Positions 3,975 to 16,070 of a stretch of 24,740 nt of DNA are shown here, in pieces. Under the pieces are notes generated by a model. The model was not told the origin of the DNA, ran no database searches, and was given only the letters and a program-made list of their open reading frames with translations. The stretch comes from a virus. Taxonomy: Duplodnaviria > Heunggongvirae > Uroviricota > Caudoviricetes. Every line of letters begins with the position of its first letter. The stretch's first letter is position 1. The position numbers were made by a program, and so were the translations under genes. The DNA is taken from the IMG/VR virus record IMGVR_UViG_648276671_000014. One strand, given 5' to 3'.

Positions 3975-4201
3975 TGGCTGATGCAATGGATCTCGTACAG
4001 CAGCGAGTTGAAGAAGAACGCCAACGTCATATCCGTGCTGCCCGTGCCAAAACACCGGGCGTGTCCCGCGTGCTTTGCGTTGAGTGTGAAGCGCCAATTC
4101 CGCCAGCACGCCGTCGTGCCATTCCGGGTGTGCAGCTTTGCATTACCTGTCAGGAAATCGCAGAGCTGAAAGGCAAACATTACAACGGAGGTGCTGTATG
4201 A
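3974..4201 (+). CDS. TraR/DksA-family C4 zinc-finger protein
   Basis: CVECEAPIPPARRRAIPGVQLCITCQ is a CxxC-N17-CxxC motif typical of phage TraR/DksA-like proteins found in this position in P2-like phages. Confidence 0.75.
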   Translation: MADAMDLVQQRVEEERQRHIRAARAKTPGVSRVLCVECEAPIPPARRRAIPGVQLCITCQEIAELKGKHYNGGAV

Positions 4202-5055
4202 GCACCATCCTGAAATGGGCGGGAAATAAAACCGCCATTATGTCCGAACTGAAAAAACACCTTCCTGCTGGCCCGCGACTGGTTGAACCTTTCGCGGGTT
4301 CCTGTGCTGTGATGATGGCGACGGATTACCCCAGCTATCTGGTTGCTGATATTAATCCTGATTTAATCAACCTCTATAAAAAGATTGCCGCTGATTGCGA
4401 AGCGTTTATATCTCGTGCCAGAGCTTTATTTGAGGAAGCAAACAGGGAGGTGGCTTATTACAACATAAGGCAGGAGTTTAACTGCTCAACTGAAATTACT
4501 GACTTCATGAAAGCAGTATATTTCCTGTATCTCAATCGTCACGGTTACCGTGGGTTATGTCGCTATAACAAGAGCGGGCATTTCAACATTCCCTACGGTA
4601 ATTATAAAAATCCGTATTTCCCTGAAAAAGAAATTCGCGCATTTGCAGAGAAAGCCCAGCGAGCAACGTTTATCTGCGCCAGCTTTGATGAAACGCTGGC
4701 GATGCTGCAGGTGGGGGATGTGGTGTATTGCGATCCGCCTTATGACGGTACGTTTTCCGGCTATCACACTGACGGCTTCACTGAAGATGACCAGTATCAC
4801 CTGGCATCTGTTCTTGAATATCGATCATCAGAAGGTCATCCAGTCATTGTTTCTAACAGTGACACATCCCTGATCCGTTCGCTGTATCGAAATTTCACTC
4901 ACCACTACATCAAGGCAAAACGCAGCATCGGCGTGTCGGCTGGCGAGAGTAAATCTGCAACAGAAATCATTGCTGTTTCCGGGGCGCGCTGCTGGGTGGG
5001 ATTTGATCCTTCGTGTGGCGTGGATAGTTCTGCTGTGTACGAGGTGCGTATATGA
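4198..5055 (+). CDS. dam: DNA adenine methyltransferase (Dam, GATC-type, orphan)
   Basis: LKWAGNK, FAGSCAV (SAM-binding FxGxG) and catalytic DPPY are all present. ATGA overlap with the upstream stop. Start at ATG 4198, not the track's 4138. Confidence 0.9.
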
Positions 5056-7466
5056 GTCATGACGATATGAGCAACTCTAGCGGCTTTAACGAGGCCGCTG
5101 CAGCATTTTCATGGAACGGCCCGAAAAAGGCCATTAACCCTTATCTGGACCCGGCGGAAGTTGCGCCGGAGTCTGCACTTTCAAACCTGATCACTCTGTA
5201 CGCTGCCGATAATGAGCAGGAACAGCTGCGCCGCGATGCACTGAGTGAGCAGGTCTGGGAGCGTTATTTCTTTAATGAATCTCGTGATCCTGTCCAGCGC
5301 GAAATGGAGCAGGATAAGCTCATTAGCCGGGCAAAGCTGGCGCATGAACAGCAGCGTTTTAACCCGGACATGGTCATTCTGGCGGACGTCAGCGCCCAGC
5401 CCACCCATATTAGCAAGCCGCTGATGCAACGTATCGAATACTTCAGCAGCCTGGGCAGGCCAAAGGCTTATTCCCGCTATTTGCGTGAGACGATTAAGCC
5501 ATGTCTGGAGCGACTGGATTGTGTACGTGACAGTCAGCTGTCTGCTTCTTTCCGTTTTATGGCAAGCCATCAAGGGCTGGAGGGCCTGCTGATCCTGCCT
5601 GAAATGAGTCAGGATCAGGTGAAACGCCTGTCCACCCTGGTAGCTGCGCATATGAGCATGTGCCTTGATGCAGCTTGTGGCGATTTGTATGCCACCGATG
5701 ACGTTAAGCCAGAAGAAATCCGCAAGACATGGGAAAAGGTGGCGGCGGAAACCCTGCGTCTGGATGTCATCCCACCTGCGTTTGAGCAACTCCGTCGGAA
5801 AAGAAACCGCCGTAAACCCGTGCCCTATGAACTCATTCCGGGTTCGCTGGCGCGTATGTTGTGCGCCGACTGGTGGTATCGGAAATTATGGAAGATGCGT
5901 TGCGAATGGCGGGAAGAGCAGTTGCGTGCTGTCTGCCTGGTCAGCAAAAAAGCATCTCCCTATGTCAGCTATGAAGCCGTGATGCATAAACGTGAGCAGC
6001 GCCGTAAGTCGCTGGAGTTTTTCCGTTCTCATGAACTGGTGAACGAAGACGGCGACACGCTGGACATGGAGGATGTGGTAAACGCCAGCAGCAGCAACCC
6101 TGCGCATCGCCGCAATGAGATGATGGCCTGTGTTAAAGGTCTGGAGCTTATCGCGGAAATGCGCGGTGACTGCGCCGTTTTCTACACTATCACCTGTCCG
6201 TCACGTTTCCATTCCACGCTCAACAACGGCAGACCCAACCCAACCTGGACAAATGCGACGGTAAGACAAAGCAGCGATTATCTGGTCGGCATGTTTGCTG
6301 CATTTCGTAAGGCAATGCACAAAACCGGGTTGCGCTGGTATGGCGTACGGGTGGCTGAGCCGCACCATGACGGTACTGTGCACTGGCATCTCATGTGCTT
6401 CATGCGTAAAAAAGACCGCCGCGCCATCACTGCATTACTGCGTAAGTTTGCCATCCGTGTAGACCGCGAGGAGCTGGGCAACAATACGGGGCCACGCTTT
6501 AAGTCTGAGCTGATTAACCCGCGCAAAGGAACACCGACAAGCTACATCGCGAAATACATCAGTAAGAACATTGACGGGCGTGGTCTGGCTGGCGAGATCA
6601 GCAAGGAAACGGGTAAATCCCTGCGTGATAACGCCGAATACGTCAATGCCTGGGCGTCTCTGCATCGTGTTCAGCAGTTCCGCTTCTTTGGTATTCCGGG
6701 ACGTCAGGCTTACCGTGAACTTCGCTTGCTGGCTGGTCAGGCGGCAAGGCAACAGGGTGACAAAAAAGCAGGTGCGCCGATACTGGATGACCCGCGCCTT
6801 GATGCCATCCTGGCTGCTGCTGATGCTGGTTGTTTTGCCACCTACATCATGAAGCAGGGCGGCGTACTGGTTCCCCGTAAATATCACCTTATCAGAACCG
6901 CTTATGAAATCAACGAAGAGCCGACCGCCTATGGCGATCACGGCATTCGTATTTATGGCATCTGGTCACCCATTGCAGAGGGCAAGATCTGCACTCATGC
7001 AGTGAAGTGGAAAATGGTTCGTAAGGCCGTTGACGTTCAGGAGGCGGTAGCCGACCAGGGCGCTTGCGCCCCTTGGACTCGTGGCAATAACTGTCCCCTT
7101 GCTGAAAATTTGAACCAACAAGGGAAAGACAAATCAGCTGATGGGGATACCAGGACGGACATTACCCGCATGGATGACAAGGAGTTGCACGATTACCTGC
7201 ACAGTATGAGCAAAAAAGAGCGCCGGGAACTGGCTGCAAGGTTACGCCTGGTGAAACCGAAACGGCGTAAAGACTACAAACAGCGAATTACAGACCATCA
7301 GCGACAGCGGCTCGTCTATGAACTGAAGTCCAGAGGATTTGATGGCAGCGAGAAAGAGGTCGATTTACTCCTTCGCGGCGGCAGTATTCCGTCAGGAGCA
7401 GGCCTGCGTATCTTCTATCGGAACCAGCGTTTGCAGGAAGATGATAAGTGGCGAAACCTGTATTAA
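5052..7466 (+). CDS. A: Replication initiation endonuclease (P2 gpA family, rolling-circle HUH nuclease)
   Basis: 804 aa. HUH motif (VHWHLM) and paired tyrosines (SYIAKYISK) are characteristic of gpA. Position is after the early genes. Confidence 0.9.
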
Positions 7467-8538: not shown

Positions 8539-8738
8539 TGGCAACATTACTTTTAGCAGTGATTTTGGTTAGTGGTTTTATTTATGTAAACCTATCACTT
8601 TCAACAAGATACCGATATAAGCGTTCCAACGGCTGGGACGCTTATTTTTTGTGGCTGCCTGGGGTATCGTTTTTTTCTCCTTGGCGGTTTTTTCACCTTT
8701 ATTTTGAACGTCAGCGGAGGGTTTCGTTGGCTGGCTAA
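8538..8738 (+). CDS. N-terminal membrane segment ORF (66 aa), probably the 5' part of a frameshifted gene
   Basis: MATLLLAVILVSGFIYV is a TM helix. The frame leaves hydrophobic sequence after the T-runs at 8645-8693, while the +1 frame continues as TM-like sequence into ORF 8704-9378. Confidence 0.4.
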   Translation: MATLLLAVILVSGFIYVNLSLSTRYRYKRSNGWDAYFLWLPGVSFFSPWRFFHLYFERQRRVSLAG

Positions 8739-9378
8739 TGCCTTGAATCTAACACCTGACAGTTTTAATGGCATGTTGTCTTCATCGAAAGACAAACTTC
8801 AAAGAATAAATGAAATCAAACAGATAGCATGGGTTATGATTTCAATTGTTCTCGCTGCGATTTCAGGTTTTGGAAATAAGTTACGCACATCACGTGGAGA
8901 TCGTCGCTGGGATGCCTTAGCTAAAGCTGTGGGTAATAACGCTTTCGAATCATTACTCATGGAAGCGTCCGCAAGACAGTTTCCGATCATAGCAACTCTG
9001 TCGTCTCGCAAAATCTATGTTGGTCTTGTTACTTGTCCGGCGTTAGAAAACGGGCTTTCAGAACACCTTGAACTTCTCCCGATGTTAAGCGGATATCGGG
9101 ATAAAGATGATCTAACGATTAGTATCACGACTAACTATCACCAACATTATCTTGATAGTGGTGTGATAAGTGGAATGTCTCGGCTTAATATCGAAGATTT
9201 CCGTGTGCTCATACCAAAAGATGAGGTTGAAACAATTTCGTTTTTTGATACTGAGACATATAACAAATTTAAAGAAAATGAAGCCAGGGATAGAAAGAAC
9301 TGTCGAAAGATTGGTAGTAAAAGTGCATCTTCGCGCAGCAAGCGTGCAGCAGATGCTGAGTCAAATGATCGTGCATGA
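8704..9378 (+). CDS. Hypothetical membrane-associated protein (224 aa as listed; the frame is open back to 8590)
   Basis: The listed start is TTG with no ATG upstream in frame. Contains a TM helix (IAWVMISIVLAAISGFG) and a soluble C-terminal domain with a basic/acidic tail. AT-rich. Followed by a strong terminator. Confidence 0.55.
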   Translation: MNVSGGFRWLANALNLTPDSFNGMLSSSKDKLQRINEIKQIAWVMISIVLAAISGFGNKLRTSRGDRRWDALAKAVGNNAFESLLMEASARQFPIIATLSSRKIYVGLVTCPALENGLSEHLELLPMLSGYRDKDDLTISITTNYHQHYLDSGVISGMSRLNIEDFRVLIPKDEVETISFFDTETYNKFKENEARDRKNCRKIGSKSASSRSKRAADAESNDRA

Positions 9379-9473
9379 CTATGCTGCATGAGATCGCATG
9401 ATCGTTTGAGGATCGTTTTTGCTAAGGCCCGCCAGAACTGGCGGGCTTTTGCGTAGATCATGCACCTGCATGA
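9365..9473. repeat. Motif array next to cos: GCATGA x4 direct plus x1 inverted, and 5 GATC sites
   Basis: GCATGA at 9373, 9386, 9396 and 9468; TCATGC at 9458. GATC at 9367, 9392, 9400, 9411 and 9456. ATGATCGT is repeated at 9365 and 9398. Confidence 0.6.
9427..9450 (+). terminator. Rho-independent terminator
   Basis: GCCCGCCA (9427-9434), loop GAAC, TGGCGGGC (9439-9446), then TTTT. Lies 49 nt after the stop of ORF 8704-9378. Confidence 0.8.
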
Positions 9474-9495
9474 AAACTACTACATAAAGCGGGCA

Positions 9496-9514
9496 GGCGT
9501 GGCGGGGATACGAG
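9496..9514 (+). other. cos site core (19-nt cohesive-end sequence, P2/186 type)
   Basis: GGCGTGGCGGGGATACGAG followed by TGCGCG. As I recall, P2 is GGCGAGGCGGGGAAAGCAC followed by TGCGCGC and 186 is GGCGTGGCGGGGAAAGCAT, so the first 13 nt equal 186. Location between the A region and Q is as expected. Confidence 0.7.
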
Positions 9515-9538
9515 TGCGCGTAATAACTAATATTCCTA

Positions 9539-9567
9539 TTGACTTTCTATGATGCAATAGCTAATTT
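9539..9567 (+). promoter_or_regulatory. Candidate sigma70 promoter (TTGACT - 17 bp - TAATTT) for the tRNA-like leader and HEPN gene
   Basis: -35 at 9539-9544, 17-nt spacer, -10 at 9562-9567. The expected transcription start near 9574 coincides with the 5' end of the cloverleaf. Confidence 0.4.
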
Positions 9568-9573
9568 ATTTCT

Positions 9574-9657
9574 AGGCCTATAGTTTAATTTGGGAAAACG
9601 GCGGAGTATGATTTAGGTTATATATCCGTCATACCGGTTCGATTCCGGTTAGGCAAA
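9574..9657 (+). ncRNA. tRNA-like cloverleaf element (non-canonical: 19-nt anticodon-position loop, no CCA)
   Basis: Acceptor 9574-9580/9650-9656 pairs 5 of 7. TA at 9581-9582 (U8 A9). D stem GTTT/AAAC 9583-9586/9596-9599 with loop AATTTGGGA. Stem GCGGA/TCCGT 9601-9605/9625-9629. T stem ACCGG/CCGGT 9633-9637/9645-9649 with canonical loop TTCGATT. Confidence 0.4.
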
Positions 9658-9685
9658 GAGCATTTTAGAGTGTTCTTTGCCTAAC
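9648..9685 (+). promoter_or_regulatory. Long hairpin immediately 5' of the HEPN gene SD
   Basis: GTTAGGCAAAGA (9648-9659) pairs perfectly with TCTTTGCCTAAC (9674-9685). The stem extends with G-T, C-G, A-T, T-G and T-A to a TTAG tetraloop. No T-run follows. SD CAGGA at 9685-9689, ATG at 9698. The 5' arm is also the 3' acceptor strand of the tRNA-like fold. Confidence 0.6.
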
Positions 9686-9697
9686 AGGATACGTAAA

Positions 9698-10447
9698 ATG
9701 ACTGATGACGAGATTAAAAATATTTTCCATGCTCAAACTGATAATGTTAGAGAGCTTGAGAAAGTCTGGAAACAAATAGTCAAAGAAATTAATACTGCAT
9801 TACGAACAGATAATGCAGTCCAAGTTGCACTTAAAACCAAAATGCTAGGTTTGGTTTTTTGCGCTCTTGCCGAAGCTCAATTTTCAAAGTTGATCCACAC
9901 GCCCGGTCAATTTTCCCCTAATGAAATAGAACAGATTAAATATGCAGCTTCATCTAATGTCTCAGATGGATGGTTAAAGTGCATAAATTTGGCTACGAGA
10001 CGACTATCGAAAGGCACAAAGCATAATCATGTTCCTAATGTTATTCAGGAGCTTGAAAGACTAGTTGATGATTTTATAAAAGCGCCAAGTTTAATTAGAA
10101 ATAAAATTGCGCATGGACAATGGGTTGTCGCTCTTAATAGAAAGAATACACATGTGAACTCAGAAATGACACATACTTTGCGTAATTTGACAATAGTGGA
10201 ATTAACAAAGTTTAAAGATGCTTTCACGAGAATGTCGCGAATAGTCGAAGATATTATTAAATCTCCTAATAAAGCTCATTTGCGTGATTATTGGCCGCAG
10301 CTTGAAGAGTTTAGAGCAAAGCAAAAGGAAATGGATAGTTGGACTCTTGCTGAAAAAGTCTTCCAATTAAAAAAGAAATATAATTACTCATCTAATATGA
10401 GATGTGAATCATGCGGTCAGTTACATGTTGATAGAAATAAACAATGA
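9698..10447 (+). CDS. HEPN-domain protein (Rx4H motif RNKIAH), putative abortive-infection or toxin RNase
   Basis: 249 aa, all-helical-looking, with a single LIRNKIAHGQW motif (R-N-x3-H, classic HEPN active site). AT-rich cargo. ATG 9698 preferred because the track's TTG 9677 lies inside the hairpin. Confidence 0.75.
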   Translation: MTDDEIKNIFHAQTDNVRELEKVWKQIVKEINTALRTDNAVQVALKTKMLGLVFCALAEAQFSKLIHTPGQFSPNEIEQIKYAASSNVSDGWLKCINLATRRLSKGTKHNHVPNVIQELERLVDDFIKAPSLIRNKIAHGQWVVALNRKNTHVNSEMTHTLRNLTIVELTKFKDAFTRMSRIVEDIIKSPNKAHLRDYWPQLEEFRAKQKEMDSWTLAEKVFQLKKKYNYSSNMRCESCGQLHVDRNKQ

Positions 10448-10494
10448 TGATTATTATTTTGTGACACTTTCAATATTTTAATGCTTTATATATT

Positions 10495-10522
10495 AGCAAT
10501 GGTCATTAACATGACCATTGCT
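10495..10522. terminator. Perfect 12-bp hairpin between convergent HEPN and Q genes (possible bidirectional terminator)
   Basis: AGCAATGGTCAT, loop TAAC, ATGACCATTGCT. There is no clear T-run on either side, so the terminator function is uncertain. Confidence 0.45.
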
Positions 10523-10537
10523 ATGTGACCTAATATA

Positions 10538-11578
10538 TTAGTTATCTTCTGTCCTGAGCGAGTAAAAGCTAAAACGGAGAATTTCTTCACCAAGCCAGTT
10601 ATTTAGTTCCTGTAAACGTTTCTGCAGTGACATTAGTTCATTGCGTACAAAAACGCGACTAGCTTTCTCCACATCCCCAAATCCCCCAACATTATTTGGC
10701 ATTATCCCCATCATCTGTGGCGGCACGCGGTGCGCTGCCATCATGTCATCCCGACTCACGTTCTTGATATTAAGAAATTCATCCTTCGCCGCGACTTCTG
10801 ACAATGGGATGATCTGAAGCCCGTCCTTTTTGCCGTTAGGCGAGTACATAAACAGGTTGCGGAAGTTGCCTGGACCTTTGGCGCTTTTCATCGCGTTGCG
10901 GAGGTTGTTCACATCTTCCTGGTTCTGCGCGGCATCGGTCATGTACATGATGAAGCCTGCATGGCTGCCGTTGATGTAATACTTACGGCGGAACAGCGTG
11001 GCAGACTCGTTGAGCAGGGCGGATGGAATGGCAGAAAGATAGCCGGGCAGGCCGTAGATCTCCTGGTTGATGTCCGGTTCCATCAGATGAAAAATGCTGC
11101 CTTTCGTGAACTGATACGGCTGGGTTGTCATACCGTATTGCACAAACCAGTAGGTATCCAGGTCTAACCCGCGTCGGGTGTATTTTGCCAGCGCAGGCTC
11201 AAGGGCGATAACTTCACCGAATCGGTTCGTGCGTTTCTCCAGGTAGGCGTTACCAAATACCAGATAGTCCTGCACAAAACGCGAAAAAGCCTGCTGGCTG
11301 AGCAGCGGATGAGGGATATAGGTACTGGTCAGAATGTTGCACTTTACTGCAATCGGGGAACTGTGATGCACGGCGGCGCGGAAGGTGCGCGCCAGTCCGT
11401 TAAAGCTGACGGGCGGCTCATACCAACGGTCCATCTGTACGCATTCCACATAGTCCAGCAGTTCACGGCGGTCCAGAACAGGAACGGGATCGCCGAAGCT
11501 GAATGCTTCGGCTGTAGTTTGACTTTTAAGCTGGATCTGTTTCGTCGCCGCAGCTCGGTTCTTCTTACTCTTTCCCAT
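10538..11578 (-). CDS. Q: Portal protein (P2 gpQ)
   Basis: 346 aa, P2 Q-like in length and sequence. TGATG overlap with the P stop. Start taken at ATG 11578; the track's 11581 is TTG. Confidence 0.9.
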   Translation of the reverse strand: MGKSKKNRAAATKQIQLKSQTTAEAFSFGDPVPVLDRRELLDYVECVQMDRWYEPPVSFNGLARTFRAAVHHSSPIAVKCNILTSTYIPHPLLSQQAFSRFVQDYLVFGNAYLEKRTNRFGEVIALEPALAKYTRRGLDLDTYWFVQYGMTTQPYQFTKGSIFHLMEPDINQEIYGLPGYLSAIPSALLNESATLFRRKYYINGSHAGFIMYMTDAAQNQEDVNNLRNAMKSAKGPGNFRNLFMYSPNGKKDGLQIIPLSEVAAKDEFLNIKNVSRDDMMAAHRVPPQMMGIMPNNVGGFGDVEKASRVFVRNELMSLQKRLQELNNWLGEEILRFSFYSLRTEDN

Positions 11579-13344
11579 CAAAAAATCTCCACAATATTGC
11601 TGGTATTGGCGGATTCGCCCTGCAGCGGTTCGTTAAACAGTGCGTGCATCGTTGCCCATGCCAGATCGGCGTGGCTGGCTTCTTCGCTGCGGCTGGCTTC
11701 ATAGGTCGGGCGGTTGCCACTGGCGGTGGTGGCGCGACGGATTGCCATAAATGACTGCGCAATGTCGGTATGTCCGGCGTCAAACTCCAGACGGCGGTGG
11801 CTGATAATGTCGTAGGCCTTGAGTACCAGGGCGTTTTTAACGTTGGGGTTGTAGACAAACTCCCGGACGGCAGGAAAGAACGCTTTCACGTTCTCGTAAA
11901 CCCCGTGACCAACGCCGGTTGAGTCGATGCCGATGTAGGTCACGTTGTACTGCTCGGTCAGTTTTTTGATTGCGTCAGCCTGGGCGCGGAAGTCCATCCC
12001 GCGCCACTGGTGACGCTCAAGAATGCGAAACTTACCGCCCGGCACGGCTGGCGGTGCCACCACCACGCATCCGGCGCTGTCGCCGTTCTGCGTACCTTTT
12101 GCCGGGTCATAACCGATCCACACTTCGCGCCAGCCAAACGGGCGCAGGGCCAGAGCATGAAAGTCGGTCCAGACTTCCCAACTGTCCACCATGCACGCCT
12201 GCAGCTCGCTGAGCGGAAACACGGACGCGAGATCGTCCACAAACTCGCACATCAGCAGGTTCTGGTATTCGTCCAGGCTGTACTCCATGCGCAACTGGTC
12301 GAGGTCGAACAGGTTACAGCCGCCGCGCACCGCATCTTCCACAGTGACTATCTGGCGGTACTGCCCGTCTGCGCACAGCAGGCCGGGGGCCAGATTGCTG
12401 TGGGACAGGTCGATGTCCACCTTATCGGCTTTGTTGCGCCCACGATTGAACAGCGCACCGGACCAGAACGGATAAGCACTGTGAGTCAGGCTGGATGGCG
12501 TGGAAAAATAGGTTTGTCGCCATTTTTTGTGAATAGCCATCCCGGAAGCCACTTTGCGCAGCTCCTGGAATTTCGGTATCCAGAAATATTCATCCAGATA
12601 CAGGTTGCCGTGGTAACTCTGGGCCGTGCGGGCATTGGTGCCGAGGAAGTAAAGCGTGGCTCCGTTAGGAAGCACCATCGGATCGCCTTTTAGCTCTACC
12701 TCGACTTCTTTGGCGAAGTCGATGATGTACTGCTTAAAGACGTGAGCCTGTGCCTTACTGGCGGAAAGGAAAATCTGGTTACGTCCGGTAAGCAGGGCGT
12801 CAATCAGGGCTTCACGGGCAAAGTAAAAGGTCGCGCCGATCTGGCGTGACTTCAGCAGGTTGCGGATGCGGTTGGTTTTTCCGGCTTCCCACCAGTGGCG
12901 CTGGTAGTTGAACATGGAGGAATGGAAGATTTCTTCCAGTTTCTCAATCTGTTCATCGGTGAAAACATTCTTTTCCGGCTGACGGCGCGGGCCCTTATTG
13001 CGGTTGGCGACGTTAGGGTTTAAGTCAGCTTCGTTGCCGCCATTGTTAAACTTGCCGATCCGCGCGTGGCGCTCCGACTGGCGCGCCAGCAGGTCAATTT
13101 CTTTGAAATCTTTCCCTTCTTTATGCTCCTTCATGATGAGCTGGCAGTAGCGTGCGGCGGTGGTGAGCTGCATCTGATCCAGCGGCCCATAGTCACCCCA
13201 CTTGTCGCGTTTTTTCCAGCTGTGAACGGTTGCAACTTTCTCGCCCAGCATTTCAGCAATGCGGGCTACGCGGTATCCCTGAAAGTACAGCAGCATGGCC
13301 TGCCGACGGGGATCGAGATCTGCGGGTGTCAGTGTGGTGTTCAT
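11578..13344 (-). CDS. P: Terminase large (ATPase) subunit (P2 gpP)
   Basis: 588 aa. The N-terminus ...DPRRQAMLLYFQGYRVARIAEMLGEK..SWKKRDKW and KSRQIGATFYFA match the P2 gpP pattern. Confidence 0.92.
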   Translation of the reverse strand: MNTTLTPADLDPRRQAMLLYFQGYRVARIAEMLGEKVATVHSWKKRDKWGDYGPLDQMQLTTAARYCQLIMKEHKEGKDFKEIDLLARQSERHARIGKFNNGGNEADLNPNVANRNKGPRRQPEKNVFTDEQIEKLEEIFHSSMFNYQRHWWEAGKTNRIRNLLKSRQIGATFYFAREALIDALLTGRNQIFLSASKAQAHVFKQYIIDFAKEVEVELKGDPMVLPNGATLYFLGTNARTAQSYHGNLYLDEYFWIPKFQELRKVASGMAIHKKWRQTYFSTPSSLTHSAYPFWSGALFNRGRNKADKVDIDLSHSNLAPGLLCADGQYRQIVTVEDAVRGGCNLFDLDQLRMEYSLDEYQNLLMCEFVDDLASVFPLSELQACMVDSWEVWTDFHALALRPFGWREVWIGYDPAKGTQNGDSAGCVVVAPPAVPGGKFRILERHQWRGMDFRAQADAIKKLTEQYNVTYIGIDSTGVGHGVYENVKAFFPAVREFVYNPNVKNALVLKAYDIISHRRLEFDAGHTDIAQSFMAIRRATTASGNRPTYEASRSEEASHADLAWATMHALFNEPLQGESANTSNIVEIF

Positions 13345-15419: not shown

Positions 15420-16070
15420 ATGAGCCTGAGTCCCGCACGGCAGCATCGCCTGCGCGTTCAGGCTGAACAGGCCGCCCGCGAGGGCGGCAGTGTTCGCCAC
15501 GCGTCGGGCTATGACCTGATGCTGCTGCAACTGGCGGAAGACCGCCGCCGTCTCAAGGGCGTTCAGTCCACGGTCAAAAAAGCGGAAATCAAGGTGGAGC
15601 TGCTGCCGAAGTACGCCGCCTGGGCGGAGGGGGTCCTGGCTGCCGGAGGCGCTCAACAGGATGACGTGCTGATGTACGTGATGCTGTGGCGTATTGATGC
15701 CGGAGATTATGCCGGGGCGCTGGAGATTGGGCGTCATGCCCTGCGTCATGGCTGGGTGATGCCGCTGGGTAACCGCAACGTGCAGACCGTGCTGGCAGAG
15801 GAAATGGCAGACGCGGCGCAGAGCGCAATGCTTGCCGCCACCGGCTTTGATGCTGATCTGTTGCTGCAGACGCTGGAGCTGACAGACGGTCTGGATATGC
15901 CGGACCAGTCACGGGCGCGTCTGCATAAAGCGATTGGCGCGGTCCTGAGTGAAAGCAATCCGGCTTCCGCCCTTAATCATCTCAACCATGCGTTACAGCT
16001 CGATCCCCGCTGTGGCGTGAAAAAAGACAAACAGCAGCTGGAGCGCAGACTGCGCAATGACAGCCGCTGA
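15420..16070 (+). CDS. M: Terminase small (endonuclease) subunit (P2 gpM)
   Basis: MSLSPARQHRLRVQAEQ..., LLPKYAAW and DDVLMYVMLWRIDAGDYAGALEIGRHAL closely parallel P2 gpM. Confidence 0.9.
   Translation: MSLSPARQHRLRVQAEQAAREGGSVRHASGYDLMLLQLAEDRRRLKGVQSTVKKAEIKVELLPKYAAWAEGVLAAGGAQQDDVLMYVMLWRIDAGDYAGALEIGRHALRHGWVMPLGNRNVQTVLAEEMADAAQSAMLAATGFDADLLLQTLELTDGLDMPDQSRARLHKAIGAVLSESNPASALNHLNHALQLDPRCGVKKDKQQLERRLRNDSR

Follow-up and report, generated by a model that had tools for sequence, protein, structure and literature searches.

A P2-family cos site with phased GCAT-core repeats, a probable terminase docking platform, in a P2-like prophage

The stretch of viral DNA analysed here (24,740 nucleotides, Caudoviricetes, IMG/VR record IMGVR_UViG_648276671_000014; the whole stretch is referred to as the window) is a P2-like prophage, and our interest lies in its packaging site, the cohesive-end site (cos), and in a set of short GCATGA repeats that stand on one side of the predicted cut. 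We consider it likely that positions 9371-9521 are the cos site and that the phased repeats are a docking array for the terminase, resembling cosB of phage lambda. The lambda site is made up of cosQ, cosN and cosB, with the R3, R2 and R1 sites for gpNu1 and the IHF site I1, and it places several short phased repeats on one side of the nick site within roughly 120-130 bp. Several phased short repeats to one side of the nick site were likewise found here, and they recur across clades; the likeness is one of layout, without sequence similarity or homology between the two sites. An earlier reading of this DNA from its letters alone (the original prediction) had proposed a P2/186-type cohesive end, repeats recognised by the terminase and a dependence of packaging on Dam methylation. 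Every motif it named was found where it had been placed, and the recognition elements have gained support from the comparisons below, but the dependence on methylation has not.

The cos core and its conserved block

Our comparisons draw on 80 P2-like prophages, one genome per bacterial species, which were retrieved via their portal protein and each anchored on its own cos core. The fetched prophages, the window and the references P2, 186, P4 and Fels-2 together gave 71 distinct cos arms. An alignment of 59 Fels-2-type arms, here termed A1, has an average identity of 79%, and a second set consists of 103 further distinct arms of the P2/186/P4 type from IMG/VR. Positions of repeats and GATC sites are counted in bp from the predicted cut at 9495/9496, a minus sign denoting the left side. 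The parts of the site are as follows.

9371-9521, plus strand: whole conserved cos block, 151 bp, with variable cargo genes on both sides
9373-9378, plus strand: repeat R1, GCATGA, at -123; GCATG in 50/71 arms
9386-9391, plus strand: repeat R2, GCATGA, at -110; GCATG in 55/71 arms
9396-9403, plus strand: repeat R3, GCATGA extended to GCATGATC, at -100; GCATG in 53/71 arms
9458-9473, no strand assigned: proximal pair R4 and R5, palindrome TCATGCA-CC-TGCATGA, at -38 to -23; columns invariant or nearly so
9473-9495, plus strand: left flank, seen in the A1 columns as an AAAAC tract, a semi-variable stretch and then AAAGCGGGCA
9496-9514, plus strand: putative cosN, the 19-nt cohesive-end sequence GGCGTGGCGGGGATACGAG, by likeness to P2 and 186; nearly invariant in A1
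9515-9520, plus strand: right flank (T/C)GCGCG, here TGCGCG; 1.5-2.0 bits per column in A1

Conservation between Fels-2-type phages from Klebsiella, Escherichia and Salmonella is limited to 9371-9521, where identity is 92-95%. Of 5426 complete E. coli genomes, 1193 contain the cos block, with matches ending at about 9520-9532, whilst the sequence to the right of the block occurs in none of the 5426, and the stretch 9521-10540 is absent from these genomes and from every fetched locus. By these sequence comparisons, 9371-9521 is a 151-bp conserved island between two variable cargo slots.

The 19-mer conforms to the core type of the P2 family (Peduoviridae), GGCG(A/T)GGCGGGG-N7. It agrees with the annotated 186 cohesive end at 15/19 positions, the first 13 nt all matching, and with the annotated P2 cohesive end at 14/19, and it is identical to the sequence in Fels-2 and to that annotated as the cos of phage SEN8 (PMC5427200). 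The original prediction had taken it for the P2/186 sequence itself; the assignment to the P2 family holds, but the exact match is to Fels-2 and SEN8. With P2, 186 and P4 the site shares the GC-rich 19-mer beginning GGCG(A/T)GGCGGGG, flanked by AAAAC...AAGCGGGC to its left and (T/C)GCGCG to its right, whereas the 19-mers diverge over their last six bases (ATACGAG here, AAAGCAT or AAAGCAC there). P2 and 186 serve as the model for the predicted nicks, which fall at 9495/9496 on the top strand and 9514/9515 on the bottom strand. The SEN8 record begins at the 19-mer, which we considered as proof of the cut site and rejected, since the record has it as a 'putative cos site' and in the paper, too, it stems from annotation.

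The sequences that flank the 19-mer belong to the same family pattern. The core of about 55 bp typical of P2-family sites (AAAAC...AAGCGGGC, the 19-mer, YGCGCG) is found in the window, and its columns are invariant in A1; on the left, this applies fully or nearly so to columns 9473-9476 and 9487-9495. Passages of three papers (PMC5694545, PMC3931495, PMC9594776) credit the 55-bp P2/P4 core to Ziermann and Calendar 1990, and the left flank at 9473-9495 corresponds to the left part of that core. The left flank of the cut is common to P2, 186 and P4, and in an anchored comparison of positions -36 to -1 with these three phages 24-28 of 36 bases are identical, the right flank being shared as well. 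Conservation ends directly after (T/C)GCGCG, which is also present in P2, 186 and P4. Within the Felsduovirus group (Salmonella Fels-2, SEN8 and RE-2010) the likeness is closer still: the 19-mer is identical in Fels-2 and SEN8, and the cos block is 92% identical in Fels-2 and RE-2010, with all five repeats in register. The window differs from the Felsduovirus cos in having TGCGCG in place of CGCGCG, an extra GATC at 9367, and other cargo on both sides.

The position of the site points the same way. The window has gpA-like, Q, P and M genes in P2 order, the same as in the P2 and 186 records, and cos lies between the early/replication-gene side and the portal and terminase genes, as it does in both of those phages. 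Given that the 19-mer matches the 186 and P2 ends, is identical in Fels-2 and SEN8 and occupies the same position as in P2 and 186, the site is, on all the defining features that sequence can provide, a P2-family cos of the Fels-2/SEN8 subtype, with cleavage as predicted above.

Phased repeats on one side of the cut

GCATGA occurs four times directly (9373, 9386, 9396 and 9468) and once inverted, as TCATGC at 9458. These counts are as originally predicted, although the accompanying expectation of 0.05 was too low, our figure for 130 bp on both strands being about 0.1. When the window's 20 GCATGA/TCATGC sites were placed at random 5000 times, no placement reached five of them within about 100 bp. 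The repeated 8-mer ATGATCGT, which had also been pointed out, lies at 9365 and 9398 and nowhere else within the window.

Across the 71 arms, the inverted repeat R4 is represented by CATGC at -37 in 57 and R5 by GCATG at -28 in 60. Information in A1 peaks at the repeats, at ATGATC and AGGATC, at the hairpin stem described below, at TCATGCA-NN-TGCATGAAAAC and at the cos core; the repeats reach 1.6-2.0 bits, the spacers 0.3-0.9 bits. The same positions are occupied in the P2/186/P4 type, where the consensus is TGCATT rather than the GCATGA seen here. P2, 186 and P4 all have GCAT cores at -110, -100 and -28, and 186 and P4 also have them at -123 and -36. Expressed as TGCA, the counterpart of R1 lies at -123 in P2 and a base further left, at -124, in both 186 and P4, that of R2 at -111 in all three phages and in 63/103 arms of the second set, and that of R3 at -101 in all three and in 73/103, whilst the proximal counterparts lie at -35 in 86/103 and at -29 in 99/103. 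The pattern in the 103 arms is therefore TGCA at -124 or about -120, -111, -101, -35 and -29. In Pseudomonas and Stutzerimonas relatives GCAGG stands in register and the layout is kept.

Two observations bear particularly on what this pattern is for. The repeat positions are fixed relative to the cut and not to any gene, the flanking genes varying among phages. In addition, the distal arms of P2 and P4 are identical at only 21 of 87 positions outside the repeat cores, which is the chance level, and the GCAT cores are shared nonetheless. P4 depends on the P2 terminase for its packaging (PMC9122126), and packaging is the function that the P2 and P4 arms have in common. The repeats are fixed in 50-60 of 71 arms and recur in P2, 186, P4 and the 103 further arms, with GCAGG in Pseudomonas, and on this comparison of sequences they probably behave like functional recognition elements, as had been suggested, with the terminase as the presumed binding partner. 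In a cosmid study of P2, transduction rose about 10^4-fold when the 55-bp core was given longer flanks (PMC9594776), an effect consistent with sequence beyond the core having a function.

What was observed here is which site this is, how its repeats are conserved and phased, and that they persist in P4; from this we infer that the terminase binds the repeats, and the subunit that would read them and the exact nick positions belong with that proposal. The enzyme, with gpM as its small and gpP as its large subunit, would make staggered nicks at 9495/9496 and 9514/9515 and so produce 19-nt 5' cohesive ends, with the phased repeats on the arm that would become the right end of the mature chromosome. 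The distal cluster R1-R3 (-123, -110, -100) and the proximal inverted pair R4-R5 (-37, -28), which stands beside the A-tract, would act as a multi-site docking platform that places the terminase nuclease on cosN, in the manner of the R sites in lambda cosB, and the conserved A-tract and AAAGCGGGCA would occupy the interval between R5 and the cut. There are differences from lambda as well: the overhang is predicted to be 19 nt rather than 12 nt, the five repeats fall into two clusters and lie on the arm further from the terminase genes, the IHF bending site between repeats was not found here, and gpP carries a helix-turn-helix of its own.

This last feature may be relevant to how the repeats are read. 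We compared the N-terminal 70 residues of the large terminase at loci L006-L209 and found that the base following TGCAT in R5 varies between clades together with the recognition helix in the gpP helix-turn-helix, G accompanying ATVHSWKKRD and T accompanying PTVQSWKQRD (H..KK against Q..KQ). ATVHSWKKRD occurs with TGCATG at 51 loci, to which STVHSWKRRD in a Chromobacterium prophage can be added, and PTVQSWKQRD with TGCATT at 47 loci. This hints that gpP, and not gpM alone, may read the repeats, although we regard it as a lead and not as proof.

Several points weigh against a terminase docking array, or against its full extent. P2 is without R4 and has R1 one base out of register, so that not every repeat can be indispensable. 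The link between motif and terminase protein comprises two or three independent lineages only, and even the SEN8 cos is annotated as putative, by similarity. Allowing up to one mismatch, we found no IHF match to WATCAANNNNTTR in 9361-9530, and because no such consensus was found the analogy with lambda cosB is incomplete.

As to precedent, the five-repeat array is not annotated in the curated records of P2 and 186, and a phased repeat array is absent from the literature searched, which gives the 55-bp core only and did not cover Ziermann and Calendar 1990; nothing relevant came up there on a P2 cosB or on binding by gpM either. We make no claim that the phased array is new, and the site itself is an ordinary member of the known P2-family cos sites.

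GATC sites, Dam methylation and other explanations

The original prediction had also drawn attention to five GATC sites in 93 bp of the arm, against an expectation of 0.4, and to the phage's own dam gene at 4198-5055. Both observations stand. The window has 87 GATC (3.5 per kb), which gives about 0.33 for 93 bp, close to the earlier figure, and the gene product is of the Dam family by PF02086 and TIGR00571. The window-wide probability of such a cluster, made up of the sites at 9367, 9392, 9400, 9411 and 9456, is about 0.02 whether the sites are placed at random or a first-order Markov model is used; the cluster is real but only moderately unusual. The individual sites, to none of which a strand is assigned, have quite different histories.

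9367-9370: GATC at -129, in this window only among the 71 arms; within the 3' end of the open reading frame 8704-9378
9392-9395: GATC at -104, in 6/71 arms, including L006, L009 and Fels-2
9400-9403: GATC inside R3, at -96, in 52/71 arms
9411-9414: second conserved GATC, at -85, in 52/71 arms; 11 bp from the first
9456-9459: GATC overlapping R4, at -40, in 4/71 arms, closest relatives only

When related cos regions are aligned, then, the GCATGA array is conserved, but of the GATC array only two of five sites are, in the Fels-2-type clade (52/71 arms), and none is in P2, 186 and P4, whose genomes are GATC-depleted. Within A1, columns 9409-9414 hold 1.4-1.9 bits, the variable spacer 9404-9408 just 0.3-0.8 bits. 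The conserved pair does not go together with a phage-borne Dam: among prophages with dam next to gpA, 28 of 33 have it, and among those lacking dam, 21 of 24. One prophage, L038, has no GATC whatever in spite of carrying dam, the full five repeats and a compensated hairpin; P2, 186 and P4 have neither a dam gene nor a GATC in the arm and keep the same repeat layout; and 65 of the 103 P2/186/P4-type arms are without GATC. The repeat unit GCATG contains no GATC, and R3 alone consistently overlaps one. At P1 pac, according to what Sternberg and Coulby reportedly described in 1990, clusters of TGATCA/G hexamers must be methylated by Dam for cleavage to occur. The two sites are alike in that short repeated motifs flank the place of packaging cleavage and the phage has a Dam-family methyltransferase gene, but P1 pac has GATC in every repeat where the window has a GATC-free repeat unit and two conserved GATCs only, and P1 packages by headful whereas the present system is a cos system; methylation dependence is neither known nor indicated for it.

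Some further observations on GATC content should be considered alongside these. The dam-less genomes of P2, 186 and P4 are depleted of GATC (0.74, 0.46 and 1.2 per kb), whilst the dam-carrying SEN8 and the window are near random expectation (3.4-3.5 per kb). We had looked upon the missing arm GATCs of P2, 186 and P4 as strong evidence against a role for GATC, but because these phages avoid the tetranucleotide genome-wide, its absence from their arms is weaker counter-evidence. Such depletion is not general in dam-less Fels-2-type prophages (median observed/expected 0.99 vs 1.06). The structural genes of L068, a locus with a 186-type cos core whose record is titled Chryseobacterium sp. 18061, are GATC-poor (observed/expected 0.38), and its arm has four GATCs between -152 and -77, at positions unlike those of the window. 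A single GATC at -50, found in 21/103 P2/186/P4-type arms (loci L090-L209), is the sole recurrent GATC position in that set.

We weighed three other explanations of the arm. The one put forward originally holds that the GATCs must be methylated by the phage or host Dam before the terminase can bind or cut, as in P1 pac; a variant of it would have SeqA retain the hemimethylated arm until methylation is complete. The idea can draw on the pair at -96 and -85, which is as conserved as the repeats whilst the spacer varies, and on the existence of two subgroups (GATCG...GGATCG and GATCC...GGATCG) in which flanking bases change and the tetranucleotides stay. L053, which is GATC-poor overall (observed/expected 0.33), retains the pair, GATC-poor L068 its four arm sites, and the lineage of the window has gained extra GATCs beside R1, R2 and R4. 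Set against this are the missing association with dam, the GATC-free arm of L038, the common layout of P2, 186 and P4 without GATC or dam and the 65 arms like them, the poor conservation of three of the five sites in the window, the GATC-free repeat unit and the modest improbability of the cluster; the literature searched holds no report of Dam-dependent packaging for the P2 family. Taken together, these data leave methylation control unsupported and, in our view, improbable. The general mechanism does not involve the GATCs: 9400/9411 is a conserved pair specific to its clade, the three other GATCs are recent, lineage-specific sites, and the phage dam gene is context only. There is a slim chance that the Fels-2-type pair beside R3 could sense methylation state as a layer upon the GCAT array, either through SeqA on the hemimethylated arm blocking the terminase, for which the 11-bp GATC spacing would be suitable, or through contacts of the terminase with methylated adenines. 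Packaging could then wait for Dam to complete the methylation of the DNA, as a cos-phage counterpart of the control at P1 pac.

Two explanations that dispense with recognition by the terminase seem to us more doubtful still. Were the repeats transcriptional control elements of the genes next to cos (operators, a promoter, a terminator module) and unrelated to packaging, the terminator-like hairpin between the clusters would be in keeping, and so would the start of the P2 old-tin transcript about 150 bp from the right end, which places transcription signals in the arm of some relatives. The repeats are fixed relative to the cut while the genes around them change, though, no promoter-like site was found in 9200-9750, and P4 retains the repeats where no other similarity to P2 is seen in the arm, all of which makes this account very unlikely. 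We would give equally little credence to a repeat pattern that is functionless inherited sequence, conserved only through adjacency to cosN. Ancestry does explain part of the conservation within the clade, given the average identity of the 59 Fels-2-type arms, but conservation is punctate, with the repeats standing well above the spacers in information, and the positions persist both at the chance-level divergence of P2 and P4 and through the change of motif to GCAGG in Pseudomonas.

Hairpin, neighbouring genes and significance

Between the distal and proximal repeats lies a further feature of the arm.

9427-9446, plus strand: inverted repeat GCCCGCCAGAACTGGCGGGC followed by TTTT; RNA fold -24.6 kcal/mol, z = -5.1

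The hairpin was not called by a scan for consensus terminators, because its T tail is only four T long. It is well maintained in A1, where 88.8% of cells are paired and five of eight pairs have changed on both sides, and its most likely role is that of a terminator for the rightward (upstream) operon, with a possible second role as a structural part of cos that helps the arm to fold. A strong hairpin with a T-run between the repeat clusters distinguishes the window from the P2/186/P4 type, as do the conserved GATC pair at -96/-85, absent from P2, 186 and P4, and the roughly 1 kb of cargo between cos and Q. 186 and P4 have a strong hairpin at the equivalent place without a T-run, and P2 has none. 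As a general part of cos, we rejected the hairpin, since the 103 P2/186/P4-type arms have a median of -10.2 kcal/mol against -8.4 for shuffles. In the same interval, a CCAG-NN-CTGGCG element keeps a constant distance from the cut in P2/186/P4-type arms (about -66 to -52; 9432-9444 in the window), and CTGG occurs at -58 in about a third of these arms, even where no stable hairpin is possible. Part of the 'terminator' may, then, be a sequence-specific element.

The genes of the window that bear on the site are listed here.

4198-5055, plus strand: Dam-family N6-adenine methyltransferase; PF02086 E = 5.7e-76, TIGR00571 323 bits against a cut-off of 115
5052-7466: gpA-like replication gene
8704-9378, plus strand: left cargo gene, 224 aa, phrog_3630, function unknown; its TGA stop is part of R1
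10538-11581, minus strand: portal protein, gpQ homologue; relatives in 80 loci, nearly all with the cos core downstream of Q
11578-13344, minus strand: terminase large subunit, gpP homologue; PF03237, PF17289 and PF06056, with an N-terminal helix-turn-helix (PF06056)
15420-16070, plus strand: terminase small subunit, gpM homologue; PF05944 E = 2.2e-40, phrog_74, 49% identity to P2 gpM

The gpP homologue is 63% identical to P2 gpP and 99.5% identical to that of SEN8. The portal gene Q is separated from cos by about 1 kb of cargo, and its position agrees with the P2 and 186 maps. On the left, we considered whether the open reading frame 8704-9378 is a homologue of 186 orf97 or Fels-2 STM2726, which occupy the same slot; there is no homology, and it is a further variable cargo gene. 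On the right, in the cos-to-portal hotspot, stands a gene of 249 aa (9698-10447, plus strand) whose sole match is phrog_12663, of unknown function; its product has no Pfam, PADLOC or NCBIfam match. The region next to cos is a hotspot for defence genes in P2-like phages (PMC9122126), and from its position we regard 9698-10447 as a candidate anti-phage or accessory gene. Between this gene and cos, 60 bp to the right of the site, lies a tRNA-like element (9576-9654, plus strand; Rfam tRNA model 30.7 bits, gathering score 29) that has intact acceptor, D and T arms, the 7-nt anticodon loop being replaced by a 19-nt insert. It is followed by a strong hairpin at about 9652-9690, just upstream of the right cargo reading frame. 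We discarded the notion of a tRNA at cos, as ARAGORN finds none in the window and the Rfam tRNA-like element falls outside the site.

The value that this analysis adds to an otherwise familiar cos site lies in a map of the likely recognition elements of the terminase and in a largely negative answer to the question of Dam. Sensing of methylation by the GATC pair would, if true, be new for a cos phage, but on present evidence it is not the favoured reading. For the prophage itself, the packaging site and hence the predicted ends of the virion genome are now fixed, and the two points of cargo insertion that flank cos are marked. For the P2 family more broadly, the five phased GCAT-core repeats offer a testable map of a probable terminase docking platform, and this map is relevant to designing efficient P2/P4 cosmids and transducing particles, where the effect of longer flanks was left unexplained (PMC9594776).

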